NCBI GenBank assembly: GCA_045598285.1
Contig: JAZLLU010000018.1
Location: 1,832 to 65,831, forward strand
DNA from: Lachnospiraceae bacterium
GTDB lineage: Bacteria > Bacillota > Clostridia > Lachnospirales > Lachnospiraceae
Reading direction: 5' to 3'
Length of the DNA stretch: 64,000 bases
Shown here in pieces: positions 3,050 through 47,079 of this stretch. The position numbers and the translations under genes were made by a program. A model generated the notes under the pieces. That model had not been told where the DNA came from. It did not search any database and worked only from the letters and a program-made list of their open reading frames with translations. How positions within the stretch are numbered: position 1 is the first letter of the stretch; each line of letters begins with the position of its first letter.

Positions 3050-3193
3050 ACGGTCATGTCTTGCTGCTCCTATAATTTTCAGGCAAAAATTAACTTCTTT
3101 GTAACATAAATTTTTCTTTAATTAATATGCCTTGTGTGGTAACATATCACGGTAAATTATAGTGGCATAAAATGCGCAAAAAAAGGTAAAGAA

Positions 3194-10714: not shown

Positions 10715-11290
10715 ATGAGTGAAGAATTAAAAGAGTTAGAGCACGAGCATCATCACCACGATGACGAGTGTCATCATGAGCATCATCACGAGCATGATGA
10801 GCATTGCGATTGCGGATGTCATGACCACGACCATGAACATGAACATCATCATGACCACCATCACCATCACGACCACGGTGAAGATTGTGACTGCGGATGC
10901 CATGACCACGAGCATCACCATCATGACCACGGCCATCAATACAATGTAGCTGGCTACAAAGTTTTAGAAACTCATTCTCACGAAGGCGCAACAGTTTGCT
11001 CTTTTGAAATGGACTTAAATAAATGTCCAACTGAGACAAAGAAAAAGATGCAAGAAAACATAGAAGCTCTCGAAACATGGCTTAAAGAAAACGACGCCCT
11101 TATCGGCCACCTCAAAGGTTATGTAAAAGAGGCTGGTCCAACCACAACATTCTCAACAACCGGCAACGGCCTCGACGTTGAAAACCACGAGCAAGGCGGC
11201 TTAAGCGTTGGCTTTGCCAGCATCGTCTTCGGCCCGGGGGAAGAAGAACTCAAAGATAAAGTGGTTGAAATTTTCAATAACTTGAAGTAG
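10715..11290 (+). CDS. His/Cys-rich metal-binding protein with a CobW_C-like C-terminal domain (hypothetical)
   Basis: By my count, residues about 10-74 contain 33 His and 7 Cys, including a duplicated CDCGCHDH module. The roughly 115-aa C-terminal part (ATVCSFEMD ... ALIGHLKGYV ...) looks globular. Shine-Dalgarno AAGAGG. The gene follows the GTPase gene after a 76-nt gap. Confidence 0.6.
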   Translation: MSEELKELEHEHHHHDDECHHEHHHEHDEHCDCGCHDHDHEHEHHHDHHHHHDHGEDCDCGCHDHEHHHHDHGHQYNVAGYKVLETHSHEGATVCSFEMDLNKCPTETKKKMQENIEALETWLKENDALIGHLKGYVKEAGPTTTFSTTGNGLDVENHEQGGLSVGFASIVFGPGEEELKDKVVEIFNNLK

Positions 11291-17794: not shown

Positions 17795-18811
17795 ATGCAA
17801 ACTAATAAAGAAGCGATGCTTGCGCTTATGCGTGGCGAAAAATACGATTTCATTCCCGAGTATTATTCGGTAGTGAAGAGCCTTGTCTTTCCTGGAGAGA
17901 GATGGATTGATATGGAGAACTTCGACCCTTATGGAACAGGCCCGGATGCATGGGGTGTACTTTGGACGAATAGAGGACCGAACCCAATGGTCGATGGCAA
18001 CATGGTTGCAAAAGATTTTAGAATGTTCACAGAGATGAGCGATTGGAAAGAGAAAGTTCATTTTCCACCAATCGACTTTATGCCAGTTGGCGACATCCTT
18101 AACGGCATGAAGATGGGCATGGGTTACAACGAGGACGAAAACGTGCTTAGCGTACTTATGCTTTCTGGTGCGTTTGAGAGAATGAACGAGATGATTGGTA
18201 TGGAAAATGCGCTTACTGCATTTTATGAGTATCCAGACGAGGTTCATGAGTTCTTCGATAAGATGTGTGAGTACAAACTTCACTGCATTGACCTTGCTTA
18301 CGAGGCTGTGCACCCTGAAGTAATTTATATGCATGATGACTGGGGCCAAAACTCTAACATGTTTTTCTCACCTGAAATCTGGAGAGAGTTCATTAAACCA
18401 CTCGAAATTAAATACACTAACCATATTCACGAGCTCGGCATGATTTACCATCACCACTCATGTGGCTATATTATGCAAATCATTCCTGATCTTGTTGAAA
18501 TCGGTGTTGATGTTATTGACCCTATGATGGTTGAAAATGATGTCCTTGGTGTAATTAAAGAGTACGGGGATAAGATTACTTTCGCTGGTGGAATCAATAA
18601 TAGAATTATTGACGATCCTGACAACACTTCTGAAGACAGACTCGCAGAAGTTCAAAGGGCTTTCGCCGAGTATGCGCCTTTAGGTAAGAGATGGTTCCCG
18701 TACTATATTCCAGCTGTAACTCCTCGTTTCGAAGAGTACATAGGAAACGTTTGGAAAACTTCTGGCACCGGCCAAGAAACTGGTGACTGGAACCTTTGGA
18801 AAAATTTGTAG
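17795..18811 (+). CDS. uroporphyrinogen decarboxylase (URO-D) family protein, methyltransferase-like
   Basis: 338 aa with an AAGGAGGGG Shine-Dalgarno. The overall pattern (N-terminal EAMLALMRGEKYDFIP, C-terminal GG.NN block, IYMHDDWG) resembles URO-D/MtaA-type proteins. No corrinoid-protein partner lies nearby. Confidence 0.7.
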   Translation: MQTNKEAMLALMRGEKYDFIPEYYSVVKSLVFPGERWIDMENFDPYGTGPDAWGVLWTNRGPNPMVDGNMVAKDFRMFTEMSDWKEKVHFPPIDFMPVGDILNGMKMGMGYNEDENVLSVLMLSGAFERMNEMIGMENALTAFYEYPDEVHEFFDKMCEYKLHCIDLAYEAVHPEVIYMHDDWGQNSNMFFSPEIWREFIKPLEIKYTNHIHELGMIYHHHSCGYIMQIIPDLVEIGVDVIDPMMVENDVLGVIKEYGDKITFAGGINNRIIDDPDNTSEDRLAEVQRAFAEYAPLGKRWFPYYIPAVTPRFEEYIGNVWKTSGTGQETGDWNLWKNL

Positions 18812-18873
18812 AGTAGAGAATTTATAATAGAACTATAAGGCTAGAAGATTTGCTTCTTGCGATTTATAACAAG

Positions 18874-18908
18874 ACTGGGCTGTTGCTTTTGTAATGGCCC
18901 AGTTTTTT
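18874..18908 (+). terminator. Rho-independent terminator after the URO-D-like gene
   Basis: 7-bp stem ACTGGGC / GCCCAGT with a 16-nt loop, running into a T6 tract. Confidence 0.55.
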
Positions 18909-18948
18909 ATTAATAAAAAGAAGTCTATTTTTAGAAAATTCATTATGC

Positions 18949-19083
18949 GCGCAGAGCCGCACAACTTTTTTCAGAGCATTTATTTAGTGCGCAGAGCCGC
19001 ACAACTTTTTTCAGAGCGTATTAGCGATTGAAAAAAGTTCGTGAGGGATGCGAGCATATAAAAAGTTCGTGCGAGATGCGAGC
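18949..19083. repeat. nested inverted-repeat block (A1 A2 | B1 B2)
   Basis: There are two identical 29-nt direct copies GCGCAGAGCCGCACAACTTTTTTCAGAGC (18949-18977 and 18989-19017). They are followed by two diverged inverted partners, GAAAAAAGTTCGTGAGGGATGCGAGC (19030-19055) and AAAAAGTTCGTGCGAGATGCGAGC (19060-19083). B2 ends 11 nt from the stop of the minus-strand gene. Confidence 0.8.
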
Positions 19084-19094
19084 TAAGCAGAACA

Positions 19095-19895
19095 TTATAG
19101 TAAATATTCTTCAATATACTTATCTACGGTTTTGACACTAAGTGGCATAGTTTTCGTCTCATGAAATGCAATTAAGTCTCTGCCTAACAATATGTCATTC
19201 CTTTCATATACATCTAATTTCCAAAGAGTGTCTTGCGTATATCCATCATCGTCAAGCAATCCAAAGTGTTCGATAATATAAATCTTCCCCGTTCGCTTGT
19301 TCATAGCATGAAAGTCTGAATAAATAACAACTTTTCGATTGCCGAAGCTATAGGTTTCAGGCATCTCATAGTGGTAAGCAATGCCGTATCGGGCGAGCTC
19401 ATCCGCAATCAAGATTTCTGACTTTGACCTAACGCGCTCGCCCTTACTTGTGTAATATTCAGACATATCATCTGGATTAAAAGGGCGCCCTTCGTATTGA
19501 ATCGCTTCGAAAATTTCCTGTCGTTGTGACAACGTCTTCGCTACCGGCCCAATAAGAGCTTTTCTAGCATCAGATAAGTTATCATACAGGGAATCTAATC
19601 CATTGTATTGATAATCATCAATAAGCATATCTAAATAACGCAATTTATTTTTTGAGTAGTTTATTAAATCAAGACAATAATCACGAGTGATAATTTTTTT
19701 AGCAATACTTAGTTGATCTTTATTTAGATATTTATATTTCTTTTCACCATCTTTCCGCCAATAGTATTGATTTGATTTGTATGATGTAGAAGTTCGCAAC
19801 TTCCCAGAGGCATCTTTAGGTAAAATGCGAGTAGCTTTATTAAGTATTTTAAGAGTGCGCTCTCTATCGGTGAGTAAGAAGTTTAATATATTCAT
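19095..19895 (-). CDS. hypothetical protein with a predicted restriction-endonuclease-like (PD-(D/E)xK-type) C-terminal domain
   Basis: 266 aa with an AGGAGG Shine-Dalgarno. The C-terminal half reads VRSKSEILIADELARYGIAYHYE ... VVIYSDFHAMN ... IYIIEHFG. This gives an E ... D ... E-x-(F/K) spacing like TnsA/Vsr-type nuclease folds. The N-terminal half has no motif I recognise. Confidence 0.5.
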   Translation of the reverse strand: MNILNFLLTDRERTLKILNKATRILPKDASGKLRTSTSYKSNQYYWRKDGEKKYKYLNKDQLSIAKKIITRDYCLDLINYSKNKLRYLDMLIDDYQYNGLDSLYDNLSDARKALIGPVAKTLSQRQEIFEAIQYEGRPFNPDDMSEYYTSKGERVRSKSEILIADELARYGIAYHYEMPETYSFGNRKVVIYSDFHAMNKRTGKIYIIEHFGLLDDDGYTQDTLWKLDVYERNDILLGRDLIAFHETKTMPLSVKTVDKYIEEYLL

Positions 19896-19929
19896 GTTAC
19901 ACCTCCTGAAATTTTGATTTTGAAATATT

Positions 19930-20043
19930 ATCTACGGACTAAAATGAGCTTTATAAAATAGGTCCGTAGAAAATTGAAGAAGAAACAAGAAAGATCTTTG
20001 AAATCTACGGACTAAAATGAGCTTTATAAAATAGGTCCGTAGA
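19930..20043. repeat. two identical 41-nt hairpin modules
   Basis: ATCTACGGACTAAAATGAGCTTTATAAAATAGGTCCGTAGA occurs at 19930-19970 and 20003-20043. Each has a perfect 9-bp stem TCTACGGAC / GTCCGTAGA and a 22-nt loop. The proximal copy is 34 nt upstream of the ATG at 19895. Confidence 0.9.
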
Positions 20044-20151
20044 TTTATAGAGTTTTGAAACGCGAAAGGCGGCGCCAGCGCTAAGGATGGGCGCGCGCTC
20101 GCCTTTGCTATTTACGGTGGCGGATTTTCGTTCGCCAGTACATGTTCTTTC

Positions 20152-20388
20152 GAGGGCCACCTTAGGTTTGTGTGAATAAAGGTAGTAATTAGATAGTGAC
20201 TAAAAGAAATTCTTTTGAGGGCCACCTTAGGTTTTTGACCAAGAAATAAGAAATTGATACATATAGCAAAACTTGCAAAAGATTCTGGAAAGCGAGGGGC
20301 ACCTTAGGTTTTTGGCCACGAAGCAAAAAACTGATACACATAGAGAAATTTGTAAAAGATTTTTGGCAGCGAGGGGCACCTTTGGTTT
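20152..20388. repeat. degenerate tandem repeats with a conserved 18-nt core, four copies
   Basis: The core GAGGG(C/G)CACCTT(A/T)GGTTT occurs at 20152, 20217, 20294 and 20371, giving periods of 65, 77 and 77 nt. The last two 77-nt units are similar along their whole length. Confidence 0.8.
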
Positions 20389-20462
20389 GCGATGGTGAAG
20401 GACAAGATTAAAAAGTGGAGAGTGACTCTTAGAAATAAGTGCACGTCGCAATGAGAAAGTTA

Positions 20463-20819
20463 TTACGTGAGGCGGCGAAGTTTTTTGTCAAAGGTAAAAA
20501 CTTTGTCGCTGTTATTGTTGTGGCGTGCGAGTAAAAGAGCGTTAGTGTAGCCAAGATTTTTGCTGGCATAGAGTGAAAGTGCATCAAGAATCGTAGATTT
20601 GTCATCAATATATATTTCATCAAGGAAACCACTCAAGGTTTCTTTGATAGTGTTTTTATCAACTTCATATACTTTTTCAAGAGTTGTTACAACTTCGGCG
20701 ATAACTTCACCAATGGTGAAAGCACCGGAAGAAAGAACATCCTTAGCGGCATTGCTTTGATCTTCAATGTCGTCGAGCAAATATCTTAAAATTACATCTG
20801 AGCCAATAAGTTTTTCCAT
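20463..20819 (-). CDS. PIN-domain protein (VapC-like putative toxin/RNase)
   Basis: From ATG 20819 (AAGGAGA Shine-Dalgarno): MEKLIGSDVILRYLLDD ... EVVTTLEKVY ... GYTNALLLA ... VFTFDKKL, a typical PIN layout of acidic residues. The longer ORF-track start at 20879 runs into the repeats and is rejected. Confidence 0.72.
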   Translation of the reverse strand: MEKLIGSDVILRYLLDDIEDQSNAAKDVLSSGAFTIGEVIAEVVTTLEKVYEVDKNTIKETLSGFLDEIYIDDKSTILDALSLYASKNLGYTNALLLARHNNNSDKVFTFDKKLRRLT

Positions 20820-20858
20820 AGCATCTCCTTTAAAAGAGGATTGTTGTATTCTTCTCCA

Positions 20859-21027
20859 TTGTAGTGAGTAGCGTTGCACGGGATAGAGATATAAATATGT
20901 AGACTATTCCGCGTTGTAGTGAGCAGCGTTGCACGGGATAGAGATATAAATATGTAGACTGTTCCGCGTTGTAGTGAGTAGCATCATCACGAGGTAGAAA
21001 TATAAGTATAAATATGCTGGCTATTCC
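20859..21027 (-). repeat. tandem direct repeats (55 nt, about three copies) between the DinJ-like and PIN genes
   Basis: Units at 20859-20913 and 20914-20968 differ at 2 of 55 positions. A third, diverged unit of about 59 nt (20969-21027) overlaps the DinJ-like stop codon. The array ends 39 nt upstream of the PIN ATG. Confidence 0.9.
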
Positions 21028-21254
21028 AAGCTGCGTCGCAAAGCATCTGCATAGAGGGCTAAGTGCCCGTGCATGCGTTGTTTAACAGCGGTACTTTGAC
21101 GAGGTCTAAATGGGTAACCATTTTCTTGGATACTTTGTGCTGCAAAGACGCGAACTGCTTCGGATAGAGAAGTACCAAGGTTTTTGTAGATATGCTCTGC
21201 AGCTTCTTTAGTTTGTGCGTCCATACGGACTTGTAAGATAGCTTCTTTTGCCAT
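21021..21254 (-). CDS. RelB/DinJ-family antitoxin-like protein
   Basis: From ATG 21254 (AGGGGA Shine-Dalgarno): MAKEAILQVRMDAQTKEAAEHIYKNLGTSLSEAVRVFAAQSIQENGYPF, a DinJ-type ribbon-helix-helix. No adjacent RelE/YafQ gene is present. Confidence 0.75.
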   Translation of the reverse strand: MAKEAILQVRMDAQTKEAAEHIYKNLGTSLSEAVRVFAAQSIQENGYPFRPRQSTAVKQRMHGHLALYADALRRSLE

Positions 21255-21360
21255 AATTATTCCCCTAATAAGCAAGTAATAATGTAATACAATCGTAATA
21301 TATATTAATACAAATGTCAACCAAGGCCGAAAAAACCTTGAAAATAAAGGAAAGTTTTTA

Positions 21361-21389
21361 TTGACATGTCAGAAATTAGTAGTTATACT
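21361..21389 (+). promoter_or_regulatory. putative sigma-A promoter upstream of rpoB (TTGACA-17 nt-TATACT)
   Basis: Consensus -35 TTGACA at 21361-21366, an exact 17-nt spacer, then TATACT at 21384-21389. This would give a roughly 300-nt A-rich leader before rpoB. Confidence 0.45.
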
Positions 21390-21694
21390 ATATGCTGATT
21401 TAATGTGGAAAAGTTCGCGAAAGCATCAAGAAAAAAGAGCAAAAAAAGTGTGAATTTTTTCTAAAAAATCGCAAAAAAACCTTGAAAAATAAATAAATTT
21501 TGAGAAATTTTCAAAAAATAAAAATTTAACAAAGTTCTAAAAAATTTTTTAGTGAAGATAGTTTCAAAAGTGAATCAAAAATGAAAAGATTTAAGGAAAC
21601 TACAAATTAATAAATATTTAAGAAAAAAATTCAAGGTTAAACAAAAAGCAAAAAAGTAGTACTTAAAAATATAAACAAAGGAGTGATTGTTTTA

Positions 21695-46984: not shown

Positions 46985-47079
46985 GTTCCGTGCTCCCGTA
47001 GGACACCTCCCATACTTCGCAGGTGCCCCCCCAAAAAGGGTCCCCCCTGCTCGCAGGGTGCCCTCCTACTCGCGCACGG
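46985..47079 (+). repeat. GC-rich imperfect-palindrome interspersed element, copy 3
   Basis: Same core as copy 1: GTTCCGTGCTCCCGTAGGACACCTCCCATACTTCGCAGGTGCCCCCCCAAAAAGGGTCCCCCCTGCTCGCAGGGTGCCCTCCTACTCGCGCACGG. It starts 6 nt after the mutase stop and ends 22 nt before the next ATG. Confidence 0.85.

Follow-up and report, generated by a model that had tools for sequence, protein, structure and literature searches.

The locus at positions 18940-21320 of the window, i.e. the whole 64-kb stretch of Lachnospiraceae DNA analysed here, raises the question of whether three genes and five repeat families packed into 2,381 nt form one functional unit. The original prediction had answered in the affirmative and proposed an RNA-containing toxin-antitoxin or defence module or, alternatively, a non-canonical mobile element. 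Every gene and repeat feature listed at that time lies within the interval and at the place given for it. The parts of the locus are as follows:

21292..21320, minus strand: promoter-like site TTGACA-17-TACGAT, 5' of the relB-like gene (10/12 consensus positions; consensus match only)
21021..21254, minus strand: RelB/DinJ-family antitoxin-like gene, 77 aa (TIGR02384 E=5e-13, Pfam RelB E=1.5e-6)
20852..21027, no strand assigned: 55-nt direct repeat, three copies between the relB-like and PIN genes, a variable-number tandem repeat (Tandem Repeats Finder)
20463..20819, minus strand: PIN-domain (VapC-like) gene, 118 aa, presumed toxin (Pfam PIN 22.8 bits)
20145..20391, no strand assigned: four direct repeats, orphan array (18-nt core GAGGGCCACCTTAGGTTT; spacing 65, 77 and 77 nt)
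20050..20144 (also given to 20145), minus strand: GC-rich structured patch (fold z -2.3)
19930..20043, no strand assigned: cognate array of the predicted nuclease gene, two identical 41-nt inverted-repeat units (period 73 nt)
19581..19895, minus strand: 266-aa gene, 5' portion (residues 1-105), variable domain (35% identity to the related locus L001)
19095..19580, minus strand: 266-aa gene, 3' portion (residues 106-266), conserved domain of predicted PD-(D/E)xK nuclease type (invariant residues, PDC-S68 match)
18942..19088, no strand assigned: nested inverted repeat, right after the stop codon of the 266-aa gene (fold z -3.5)

Coding sequence accounts for 1,392 of the 2,381 nt and ~42% is non-coding, in line with the roughly 40 percent estimated earlier. 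No real non-coding stretch of the 64-kb window is longer than the 567 nt that separate the 266-aa gene from the PIN gene. Gaps elsewhere in the window include some of 362, 258, 205 and 186 nt, and the earlier statement that they range from a few to about 100 nt was slightly too strong. None of the repeat families of the locus has copies elsewhere in the window, and Tandem Repeats Finder detected no further array with a period >27 nt in its remainder.

Two modules side by side

As the following comparisons with related loci illustrate, the locus consists of two independent modules that lie side by side: a RelB-PIN pair and a cassette of hairpin array and predicted nuclease gene. The former is an ordinary-looking type II toxin-antitoxin-like pair with the PIN protein as presumed toxin. 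Its RelB/DinJ-like ORF scores 49 bits against TIGR02384 (cut-off 45.65), while the Pfam PIN match falls just under the cut-off of 23.6 bits in the window (22.8) and above it in the L001 orthologue (27.3); both proteins are 86% identical to their L001 counterparts. As in type II VapBC/RelBE pairs, a small RelB/DinJ ribbon-helix-helix antitoxin gene is located 5' of a PIN gene. Unlike in these pairs, the PIN match is borderline (22.8-27.3 bits), and instead of overlapping or closely abutting as in canonical representatives, the two genes are separated by a spacer of 76-201 nt with a tandem repeat. In L168-L170, this spacer has one 55-nt copy and measures 76-81 nt; L171 and L001 have two copies within 140-148 nt, and the window has three within 201 nt. 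The 55-nt unit is unstructured on both strands (fold z -0.5 and +1.0). Only six close homologues of the PIN protein were found, and the relB-like and PIN genes are always adjacent in the six related loci (L001, L168-L172). An intact PIN domain has four acidic residues; read by eye, the third of these positions appears to be N here (YTNALLLA).

The view that the three genes and five repeat families jointly constitute one integrated defence or toxin-antitoxin unit draws on the order RelB-PIN-array-nuclease, which recurs in L001 and L170, and on the promoter-like site at 21292..21320. The latter is the sole good minus-strand promoter match within the locus, 5' of relB, and the genes may be co-transcribed here; its region aligns with L001 at 82%. 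Yet, in L168, L171 and L172, RelB-PIN has no nuclease gene beside it, and the nuclease gene is found without RelB-PIN in >1,000 other loci, essentially all those examined. Moreover, the 55-nt repeat varies between 1 and 3 copies, and the 65/77-nt array was encountered in this genome only among the loci compared. A single unit is thus already contradicted by natural variants and must be considered very improbable.

The 65/77-nt array comprises four copies of the 18-nt core at 20152, 20217, 20294 and 20371 (chance expectation 0.01), which contains the palindrome ACCTAAGGT. Its repeats are unstructured (fold z +0.8 and +1.2), and none of the 172 loci compared, syntenic ones included, has such an array. 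Both the 55-nt and the 65/77-nt direct repeats are specific to this lineage or this genome, and their periods lie off the 10.5-bp lattice described below for the hairpin arrays. The idea that they belong to the same system was not borne out, given that they are unstructured, off this lattice and lineage- or genome-specific. In contrast to the hairpin arrays, to which the earlier verdict against random decay does apply, these two repeats may well be neutral tandem duplications.

The 3' part of the GC-rich patch (CGCTGGCGCCGCCTTTCGCGTTTC) directly precedes the first hairpin unit, with the same motif and placement in L170; in a terminator scan, the patch was not called as a minus-strand terminator for want of a T-run. 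At the other end of the cassette, the nested inverted repeat is built from two direct and then two inverted copies of a ~30-nt element and folds as one long hairpin (-42.8 kcal/mol). The same scan located a minus-strand terminator-like site at 18965-18942 within it, and the element may serve as terminator of the nuclease gene. L001 harbors one copy, while in L171 it is missing along with the nuclease gene; it is part of the nuclease module. Taken together, the array-nuclease cassette is self-contained, with an inverted-repeat array, a gene for a ~260-aa protein and a terminal hairpin after the gene.

The predicted nuclease and its family

No Pfam or NCBIfam model matches the 266-aa protein, nor was a match to a ToxN/AbiQ/CptN/TenpN-type endoribonuclease found in Pfam, NCBIfam or PADLOC. 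However, the restriction-endonuclease-like C-terminus that had been proposed from the sequence gains support as a predicted PD-(D/E)xK-type nuclease domain. Residues 147-263 match the C-terminus of the PADLOC candidate PDC-S68 (E=1e-19), and Foldseek searches with the AlphaFold model (pLDDT 93.9) returned weak matches (best E=0.05, probability 0.8), of which the best-ranked are almost all PD-(D/E)xK nucleases. The domain is characterized by the motif TxKGERVRSKSE...YE.P...(P/S)DF...EHxG, and its invariant residues include K158, E160, E177, D194, E209 and H210. PD-(D/E)xK nucleases have an alpha-beta-beta-beta-alpha core whose acidic catalytic residues lie on the helix, strand 2 and strand 3, and E160, D194 and E209 are placed on the model as expected for such a core. 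The EHxG motif lacks the canonical Lys of PD-(D/E)xK enzymes, for which K158 may substitute. The same domain forms the C-terminus of AAA ATPases encoded by plasmids from Vibrio and Rhizobium (tblastn). The homology with PDC-S68 and these ATPases covers the C-terminal 120 residues; they are single proteins of ~1,200 aa with an ATPase region, whereas here the C-domain is fused to a variable domain of 140 aa and accompanied by a DNA array.

This N-terminal domain, listed above as residues 1-105, has a helix / beta-hairpin / long-helix architecture. Foldseek revealed no known fold for it, DNA-binding ones included, the best match being of prefoldin-like topology (E=0.27). It is the presumed reader of the array arms.

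Relatives of the predicted nuclease fall into 8,536 clusters at 50% identity (E<=1e-3), or 2,811 at E<=1e-30. On contigs from one genome per species, at least 597 relatives are encoded, in 597 of the first 600 candidate stretches; on metagenome contigs, 598 out of 600 candidate stretches encode one. Judging from these searches, this is a large unnamed family of putative gut-bacterial nuclease genes, each with its own array upstream, though about a quarter of the loci have no detectable one. A literature search found no description of a nuclease gene combined with a helically spaced inverted-repeat array, and the locus remains, as initially suspected, a candidate for something undescribed.

Pairing of array and gene

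In the window, the hairpin modules (19930-19970 and 20003-20043) are 73 nt apart, or ~7 helical turns, and each consists of a 9-bp stem with the arms ATCTACGGAC/GTCCGTAGAT and a 21-nt loop (fold z -3.9). A distance of 34 nt separates the array from the start codon of the nuclease gene, which places the array within the mRNA leader or promoter. At the same place, L001 and L170 carry arrays of the same design with a sequence different from that of the window.

Throughout the family, array density reaches 0.83 per kb within 600 nt upstream of the gene, a 33-fold enrichment over the 0.025 per kb of the remaining locus sequence. Tandem Repeats Finder detected an upstream array in 40 of 91 distinct loci, and a k-mer test added ~24 genome loci with the same periodicity. 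Hence, the check proposed at the outset, whether homologues co-occur with similar repeats in other genomes, speaks for the nuclease gene, and the hairpin modules and the nuclease-like gene are supported as a functional pair. The units are 43-95 nt long and contain a 6-13-bp inverted repeat each, with sequences that differ between loci. According to these surveys, the pairing of array and gene is conserved across three phyla.

Array and protein also change together. Between the window and L001, the N-domain is 35% identical, the remainder of the protein (C-domain) 84% and a flanking gene 94%, while the arrays cannot be aligned; L170 and L001, in turn, have array arms in common and N-domains with 63% identity. 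Family-wide, pairs with 70-98% C-domain identity and different arrays display N-domains that are 28-68% identical, with differences concentrated at residues ~20-40, a putative specificity hot spot. These alignments demonstrate that N-domain identity tracks array similarity across the family. Within the arrays, loops and spacers have diverged between L170 and L001 as well as between L050 and L054, which are paralogues, whereas both pairs have retained arms and period. Judged by these comparisons, arms and period are under selection, loops and spacers are not.

A distinctive trait of the arrays is their period. Periods cluster at 52-53, 61-64, 73-75, 84-86 and 95 nt, i.e. on multiples of 10.5 bp, and for 53 distinct arrays, a sample out of thousands of family members, the Rayleigh R at 10.5 bp is 0.75 with a phase of ~0, a value that did not arise in any of 2,000 random sets. 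Shared ancestry instead of independent selection may account for some of this regularity; a test restricted to the five cluster means, which allows for it, gave 12/5,000. Within a period class, the period has an SD of 0.5-1.3, whereas hairpin and spacer lengths vary with SDs of 2.5-18 and compensate each other. In other words, the arrays repeat at whole-number multiples of the DNA helical turn.

Conceivably, the arrays could be neutral, unstable tandem duplications of the VNTR type that accumulate upstream of the gene by chance. Copy number does vary, some arrays show higher-order periods, and many contigs end within an array. Such an origin would leave unexplained a 33-fold enrichment at one position beside one gene family across phyla, arms and periods that persist while loops and spacers decay, quantised periods and an array sequence that co-varies with the N-terminal domain. 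For the hairpin arrays it is already contradicted and scarcely credible.

A CRISPR array was rejected as well, since whole units including the 'spacers' repeat, higher-order periods exist and no cas-like neighbours were found.

Duplex DNA or RNA

We tentatively favor a model in which the helically phased array is bound, as duplex DNA, by the protein of its own cassette, with repression or sequestration of the nuclease as the outcome. The N-terminal domain would read the arms on duplex DNA, and proteins on successive units would occupy the same helix face and assemble cooperatively over their own promoter-leader region. The resulting nucleoprotein complex could limit nuclease expression as an operator or roadblock, while the array could also act as a harmless high-affinity sink that holds the nuclease. 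With expression limited and the nuclease held on the sink, the cassette would thus behave as a selfish or defensive nuclease that regulates itself, kept in check by DNA in cis instead of a second protein or RNA. Several observations speak against this model: the spacing of the two arms in one unit is variable (mostly 20-36 nt from centre to centre), which is unusual for a rigid dimer that reads two half-sites; the N-terminal domain matches no known DNA-binding fold; and about a quarter of the loci have no detectable array.

[quoted passage not shown] Here, the N-terminal domain would bind hairpins transcribed from an upstream promoter, possibly cleaving them into single units, and these RNAs would inhibit the nuclease until degraded. 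Each unit can fold as a hairpin, the window array is placed in the mRNA leader or promoter, and promoter-like sites are found upstream of the arrays in L013, L034, L054 and L084; these arrays are therefore probably transcribed. Known type III units are ~21-45 nt long, in contrast to the 43-95 nt observed here. The order promoter, tandem repeats and gene of type III loci is matched (PMC12283969), and as in ToxIN, CptIN and TenpIN, the array directly precedes a single protein gene, repeats and protein co-vary like ToxI and ToxN, and the small, self-contained loci are spread over many lineages. Type III repeat units, however, fold as pseudoknots (PMC12283969) and not as simple inverted repeats, and their loci contain a rho-independent terminator between repeats and toxin gene (PMC12283969), whereas a sense-strand terminator-like site between array and gene was found in 0 of 46 loci and is likewise missing from the window. 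Furthermore, single-sided stem changes exhibit no G-U bias, with G-U and A-C at 38:30 and 50:48, no Rfam family matches, free-sequence loops of 14-30 nt would make poor RNA hairpins, and an RNA gives no reason for periods on multiples of 10.5 bp or for compensating hairpin and spacer lengths. A lone half-site, TTTGTTGCATAAAG, that adjoins the ribosome-binding site is conserved between L050 and L054; standing alone, it cannot form a hairpin. Finally, the protein has a predicted PD-(D/E)xK fold and is not of the ToxN/CptN/TenpN endoribonuclease type. The RNA-containing toxin-antitoxin system originally envisaged is accordingly not favored in view of the missing terminators, the absent G-U bias and the helical period.

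Binding of duplex DNA has its closest parallels in plasmid centromeres and iteron arrays. In Rep-iteron origins, helically phased binding sites lie next to the gene of their binding protein, with co-varying specificity. In sopC of the F plasmid, a 43-bp unit is repeated 12 times, and SopB binds a 16-bp inverted repeat within each unit (PMC3177203). The arrays described here resemble sopC as tandem direct repeats with an inverted repeat in each, and they resemble plasmid centromere and iteron arrays in general in their helical register, the adjoining gene of a putative binding protein and the co-variation of protein and repeats in putative specificity. Unlike sopC and Rep-iteron origins, the loci are chromosomal with housekeeping neighbours and no full-length plasmid or phage (IMG/VR) copies, no ParA-type NTPase or Rep domain is present, the protein carries a predicted, apparently active nuclease domain, and one genome can hold several copies with different putative specificities.

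Possible roles of the cassette

A more far-reaching extension of duplex binding, which we put forward as a doubtful possibility, is a new class of toxin-antidote or immunity module. The antidote would be the phased DNA array of cognate sites in cis, sequestering and silencing a sequence-specific PD-(D/E)xK nuclease, and cutting would be released by loss or dilution of the array or by isolated cognate sites on incoming DNA. If this were true, the hypervariable N-domains would represent naturally diversifying 9-12-bp DNA readers on a constant nuclease.

The neighbourhoods of the cassette bring another role into play, that of a minimal selfish or homing-type element. The nuclease would cut isolated cognate sites in cassette-free genomes, repair would copy the cassette in beside conserved genes, and the array would be its own protected or multiplied target. 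Indeed, the cassette adjoins highly conserved housekeeping genes (tuf in 10 of 71 loci, comEC-holA, dprA, and rpoB in the window), and several genomes hold multiple copies with different putative specificities. In some loci, the same array flanks the nuclease gene on both sides. The cassette is also subject to presence/absence polymorphism at one site: GATTTC and GAATTTTC delimit the indel relative to L171, and this allele without nuclease gene retains a single hairpin unit with the same arms as in the window. Moreover, the three phyla of the family, represented by Lachnospiraceae, Treponema and Fibrobacter, have a gut or rumen habitat in common. On the other hand, the state of L171 is equally explained by a simple deletion, target-site duplications and defined ends were looked for and none found, and homing alone does not account for helical phasing. 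The nuclease gene has no copies among IMG/VR viral contigs, and the protein has no full-length match on 72,556 plasmids. Homing is therefore improbable as the explanation of the cassette, and the mobile element suggested at the outset finds little encouragement, with no recombinase at the locus, as already stated then, and no copies in IMG/VR, yet with a presence/absence polymorphism.

Homing would be compatible with duplex binding, the favored explanation, and need not be seen as a strict alternative to it. The free-standing homing endonuclease I-TevI, which is phage-borne, represses its own gene via one operator. Like I-TevI, the cassette would unite a variable, putative recognition domain with a conserved nuclease domain, its gene lies between conserved genes, and binding is proposed to occur in its own promoter region. 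It differs from I-TevI in having a phased array in place of a single operator, in the nuclease family and in not being phage-borne. One unannotated 4.2-kb 'Bacteriophage sp.' record carries a match.

Composition of the locus

Reading positions 18700-21500 with an ORF and repeat listing reproduced every item that the original prediction had listed for this locus, and the non-coding share, placed there at about 40%, was measured at ~42%. The following features were obtained:

21254-21021, minus strand: RelB/DinJ-like gene, 77 aa
20852-21027: three tandem units of 55 nt
20819-20463, minus strand: PIN-like gene, 118 aa
20145-20391: four copies of an 18-nt core, spaced by 65, 77 and 77 nt
Between the 18-nt-core repeats and the hairpin modules, in minus-strand order: GC-rich patch (fold z -2.3)
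20043-19930: two identical 41-nt hairpin modules, 73 nt apart (fold z -3.9)
19895-19095, minus strand: 266-aa gene
19088-18942: nested inverted repeat downstream of the 266-aa gene (fold z -3.5)

Each repeat family lies far above chance expectation, and none was found in the rest of the 64 kb. Folding points to real structure in the hairpin module and the downstream inverted repeat and to a weaker one in the GC-rich patch; no secondary structure was found for the 55-nt and 77-nt units on either strand. No other true intergenic stretch in the window is as long as the 567-nt gap between the PIN-like and the 266-aa gene. This gap includes the 18-nt core repeats, which are unstructured and carry a palindromic core ACCTAAGGT (CCTNAGG); this 65/77-nt array was found in none of the 172 loci fetched, including the related ones.

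A tandem inverted-repeat array and a nuclease-like gene

With high confidence, the real unit at this locus is the 266-aa gene together with the array of inverted repeats that precedes it. In line with the original prediction, homologues of this gene co-occur with similar repeats elsewhere: Tandem Repeats Finder detected upstream arrays in 36 of 80 genome loci, with 2-12 copies of 43-95-nt units that end 17-490 nt before the start codon, and k-mer autocorrelation revealed the same periods in ~24 of the remaining loci. Across 106 distinct loci, the 600 nt that precede the gene contain 0.83 arrays per kb, as compared with 0.025 per kb elsewhere. Each unit consists of an inverted repeat of 6-13 bp enclosing a loop of 14-30 nt, followed by a spacer, and the sequences vary from locus to locus. 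In L001, a close relative of the window, the hairpin ATACATGCA-N19/20-TGCATGTAT recurs in five 72-73-nt units that fill the entire spacer between the PIN and nuclease genes, an array alike in design and unrelated in sequence to that of the window. Many contigs stop inside an array, as repeats would lead one to expect. In a few loci, the same array family flanks the gene on both sides with no second gene past the downstream array (L014, 1-225 and 1088-1501; L080, 1-193 and 1098-1461); recombination between two such arrays would delete the nuclease gene.

At least 597 relatives of the protein are encoded in one-genome-per-species contigs (597 of the 600 matches listed encode one) and at least 598 in metagenome contigs (598 of the 600 listed), and the family comprises 8,536 clusters at 50% identity, roughly 2,800 of which are full-length. 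An exact look-up of the window's own protein in the contig index gave no match. Most hosts are Lachnospiraceae; the others include Treponema and Fibrobacter, and a genome often carries several copies. Among the cultured carriers are Treponema bryantii NK4A124 (L044) and Faecalicatena contorta ET51 (L043). Neighbouring genes are of the housekeeping type, such as tuf (upstream in 10 of 71 loci), comEC/holA and dprA. The examined neighbourhoods revealed no conserved partner gene, no recombinase and no defence-island signal beyond a single JetA neighbour, and neither members in IMG/VR nor full-length copies on plasmids were found. The only phage-labelled match, a full-length member of 36% identity (MT839528.1, 380-1051), comes from human faeces; its 4.2-kb 'Bacteriophage sp.' record is unannotated and may be a misbinned bacterial fragment.

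Pfam and NCBIfam searches returned no match for the 266-aa protein, sequence searches of the solved structures in the PDB gave none that was meaningful, and no source that contains family members annotates them. The PADLOC candidate PDC-S68 (1,221 residues) has a C-terminus that matches the final 120 residues of the protein (E=1e-19). An AlphaFold model built from 19 homologues (pLDDT 93.9) consists of an N-terminal helix/beta-hairpin/long-helix domain (residues 1-105, N-domain) and a C-terminal alpha/beta domain (residues 106-266, C-domain). Foldseek matches to this model are weak (best E=0.05), and the best-ranked ones are almost all PD-(D/E)xK nucleases, i.e. XisH, VC1899, Exo5, Card1, MunI, MGME1, RecE, FAN1 and Cas4. 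The dual-nuclease defence protein Upx appeared only as the rank-49 structural match. The family alignment contains an invariant block, TxKGERVRSKSE...Y.YE.P...(P/S)DF...N...EHxG, and places E160, D194 and E209 where PD-(D/E)xK catalytic residues belong. The C-domain alone also ends large 'AAA family ATPase' genes on Vibrio and Rhizobium plasmids, NZ_AP028130.1 (42806-43141) and NZ_CP013539.1 (323627-323830); this agrees with the PDC-S68 match and suggests that the domain is a reusable effector.

The RelB-PIN pair and turnover at the site

The original prediction regarded the locus as one functional unit. The part of this view that joins repeats and nuclease gene stands, whereas a single three-gene unit does not: the order RelB-PIN-array-nuclease recurs in L001 and L170, while L171, L172 and L168 carry RelB-PIN without a nuclease gene. 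The RelB/DinJ assignment of the 77-aa protein is a solid sequence-based prediction (TIGR02384, E=5e-13). In contrast, the PIN assignment in the window is borderline, with 22.8 bits against a Pfam cut-off of 23.6, which the L001 orthologue exceeds (27.3 bits). The PIN protein has only six close relatives. The spacer between the two genes measures 76-81, 140-148 or 201 nt, corresponding to one, two or three copies of a 55-59-nt unit; the 55-nt repeat is therefore an ancestral spacer that varies in copy number. RelB-PIN resembles an ordinary type II-like toxin-antitoxin pair that differs by its unusually long, repeat-bearing spacer.

When read by eye, the PIN protein (20463-20819) has N at its third conserved acidic position, within YTNALLLA in the window and L001 and within YSNALLLA in L171 and L170, so that the protein may be catalytically atypical. 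An Rfam match to Bacilli-1 that spans the PIN stop codon (20425-20505; 23.8 bits versus a gathering score of 55.6, E=0.019) is most likely due to chance.

L171 has, between its PIN gene and a URO-D-like gene, one solo hairpin with the arm sequence of the window (ATCTACGGACC-N20-GGTTCGTAGAT, 871-910), which aligns with the window's distal hairpin, flanks included. It could be either a deletion scar or an unoccupied target. The two alleles differ by a spacer, the second hairpin, the gene and the terminal inverted repeat, a segment bounded by GATTTC and GAATTTTC. Close relatives thus exhibit three states of the site: empty with a solo unit, occupied by a TCTACGGAC-type cassette, or occupied by a ATACATGCA-type cassette. 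This pattern is compatible with a selfish or defensive element that is rapidly replaced, by whatever route.

Covariation of the N-domain with the array

Between the window and L001, identity amounts to 94% for the flanking gene, 86% each for RelB and PIN, and 84% for the C-domain, versus merely 35% for the N-domain, and the arrays cannot be aligned. The N-domain of L170 is 63% identical to that of L001 and 45% to that of the window, and the arms of L170 are those of L001. In a comparison of 62 loci, array similarity correlated better with N-domain than with C-domain identity, and dozens of pairs combine C-domains 70-98% identical with N-domains 28-68% identical and unrelated arrays. L116 and L055 share 98% of their C-domain residues and possess the arms TGGCACGTAA and ATCCGCGTAA, respectively; their differences are concentrated at residues ~20-40 and 51-55, i.e. 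the end of helix 1 and the beta-hairpin. N-domains of paralogues from the same genome are usually very different (21-41% identity). As judged from these alignments, array and protein change together. Neither arm spacing nor period correlated with the length of the N-domain.

Helical phasing and the possible role of the array

Comparison of related arrays reveals which parts are retained. L170 and L001 have kept the same arms (TTTTTATACATGC ... GCATGTATT) and the same period, whereas their loops and spacers have diverged. Likewise, the paralogues L050 and L054, 5 kb apart on JAFXQK010000027.1, have common arms (ATGTTGCTTTT/AAAAGCAACAT) and a period of 61-62 nt with fully diverged loops and spacers; both also retain a lone half-site, TTTGTTGCATAAAG, immediately before the ribosome-binding site.

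Over 53 distinct arrays, the periods cluster at 52-54, 61-64, 73-75, 84-86 and 95 nt. A Rayleigh test peaked at 10.5-10.9 nt (R=0.75), a value matched by none of 2,000 random sets, with a phase of ~0 at 10.5 nt; the periods are hence whole multiples of the B-DNA helical repeat. When only the five cluster means were tested, a deliberately conservative choice, 12 of 5,000 random sets matched. Within a period class, the period varies by 0.5-1.3 nt, as opposed to 2.5-18 nt for hairpin and spacer lengths, which cancel each other; it is therefore their sum that is constrained, not the parts. The hairpin pair of the window (73 nt) and the units of L001 (72-73 nt) and L170 (~75 nt) lie at seven turns (73.5 nt) or close to it. 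The 55-nt and 65/77-nt repeats of the window are off this 10.5-bp lattice.

An RNA role of the array comes to mind from the promoter-repeats-gene layout, which recalls type III toxin-antitoxin loci. Recognizable promoters precede the arrays of L013, L034, L054 and L084, and the array of the window stops 34 nt short of the start codon; arrays are therefore probably transcribed. However, none of 46 loci has a terminator-like site between array and gene, and single-sided stem changes yield G-U as often as A-C (38:30 and 50:48), although a selected RNA helix should tolerate G-U only. Moreover, the long loops vary freely, the lone conserved half-site is unable to pair, the period follows the DNA helix, and the arrays match no Rfam family. 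Taken together, the module is probably not RNA-based, contrary to the RNA-containing system considered in the original prediction.

Among the window and 19 array-bearing loci, the sole Rfam match at gathering score was a group II intron domain in L034 (RF02001, 933-1102, 135 bits), ~2.4 kb upstream of the array and probably unrelated. Purine skew as a mark of the transcribed strand was rejected, with an array median of 0.62 versus a coding-strand background of 0.60 and a sign that, within the window lineage, changes with the likely replication strand. Unit-specific compensatory changes gave a noisy count not above chance, and strong sigma-70 matches (seven in 26 kb, five of them upstream of arrays) were too rare to decide. 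In L013, three tandem 33-nt units, each with a near-consensus promoter TTTACA-16-TATAAT (3075-3187), lie between the terminator of the upstream gene and the 63-nt array, pointing into the latter.

The N-domain, with no significant Foldseek neighbour on its own (best E=0.27, prefoldin-like topology only), leaves the choice between DNA and RNA unsettled by its fold. The evidence against an RNA role therefore favours a protein that recognizes the arms in duplex DNA, with specificity residing in its N-domain. Proteins bound in register may then assemble cooperatively on the array. Such a complex would repress its own nuclease gene because the array lies between promoter and gene or overlaps them, and the array would at the same time serve as a high-affinity sink for the nuclease. 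We put this mechanism forward tentatively, as a possibility with slightly less in its favour than against it.

Relation to known systems

In Rep-iteron pairs, a protein is bound to a phased repeat array beside its own gene. SopB binds the sopC site of F, in which a 43-bp repeat that carries an inverted repeat occurs 12 times (PMC3177203). Both are the closest working likeness, namely a protein on a phased array adjoining its own gene, but the array-nuclease module differs in being chromosomal, in lacking an NTPase or Rep domain and in containing a nuclease domain. Type III toxin-antitoxin loci are defined as promoter, repeats, terminator and toxin (PMC12283969); the present locus looks alike, yet fails three defining features. 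The module was rated as outside the known kinds of system. Literature searches across 8 million full texts, including one for the motif GERVRSKSE, found no description of the family, which agrees with the earlier suspicion of something undescribed.

An unnamed family with thousands of clusters in gut and rumen bacteria, for which neither a model nor literature was found, thereby gains a defining anatomy, array plus gene, as well as testable rules: arms and period matter, and the N-domain sets specificity. If the DNA-level reading is true, a nuclease would be kept in check without antitoxin protein, RNA or methylase, and the family would provide a large natural set in which each reader domain comes with its matching DNA site, minable for programmable DNA recognition. 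In practice, metagenome assemblies break at the arrays, which can also be confused with CRISPR-like repeats or non-coding RNAs. The window also advises caution, as its dense, repeat-rich locus consists of juxtaposed unrelated modules.

Further observations in the window

A 362-nt non-coding leader upstream of rpoB (21321-21682) gave no Rfam match; it contains a near-consensus plus-strand promoter TTGACA-17-TATACT (21361-21389) and the A-rich direct repeats AAAAAACCTTGAAAA at 21330 and 21474. Further short-period tandem repeats are unrelated to the array-nuclease finding: CACGAGCATCAT and CATCACCATCACCAC at 10742-10875, which would be His-rich if coding, and a GC-rich 19-mer that occurs twice in tandem at 47037-47073.
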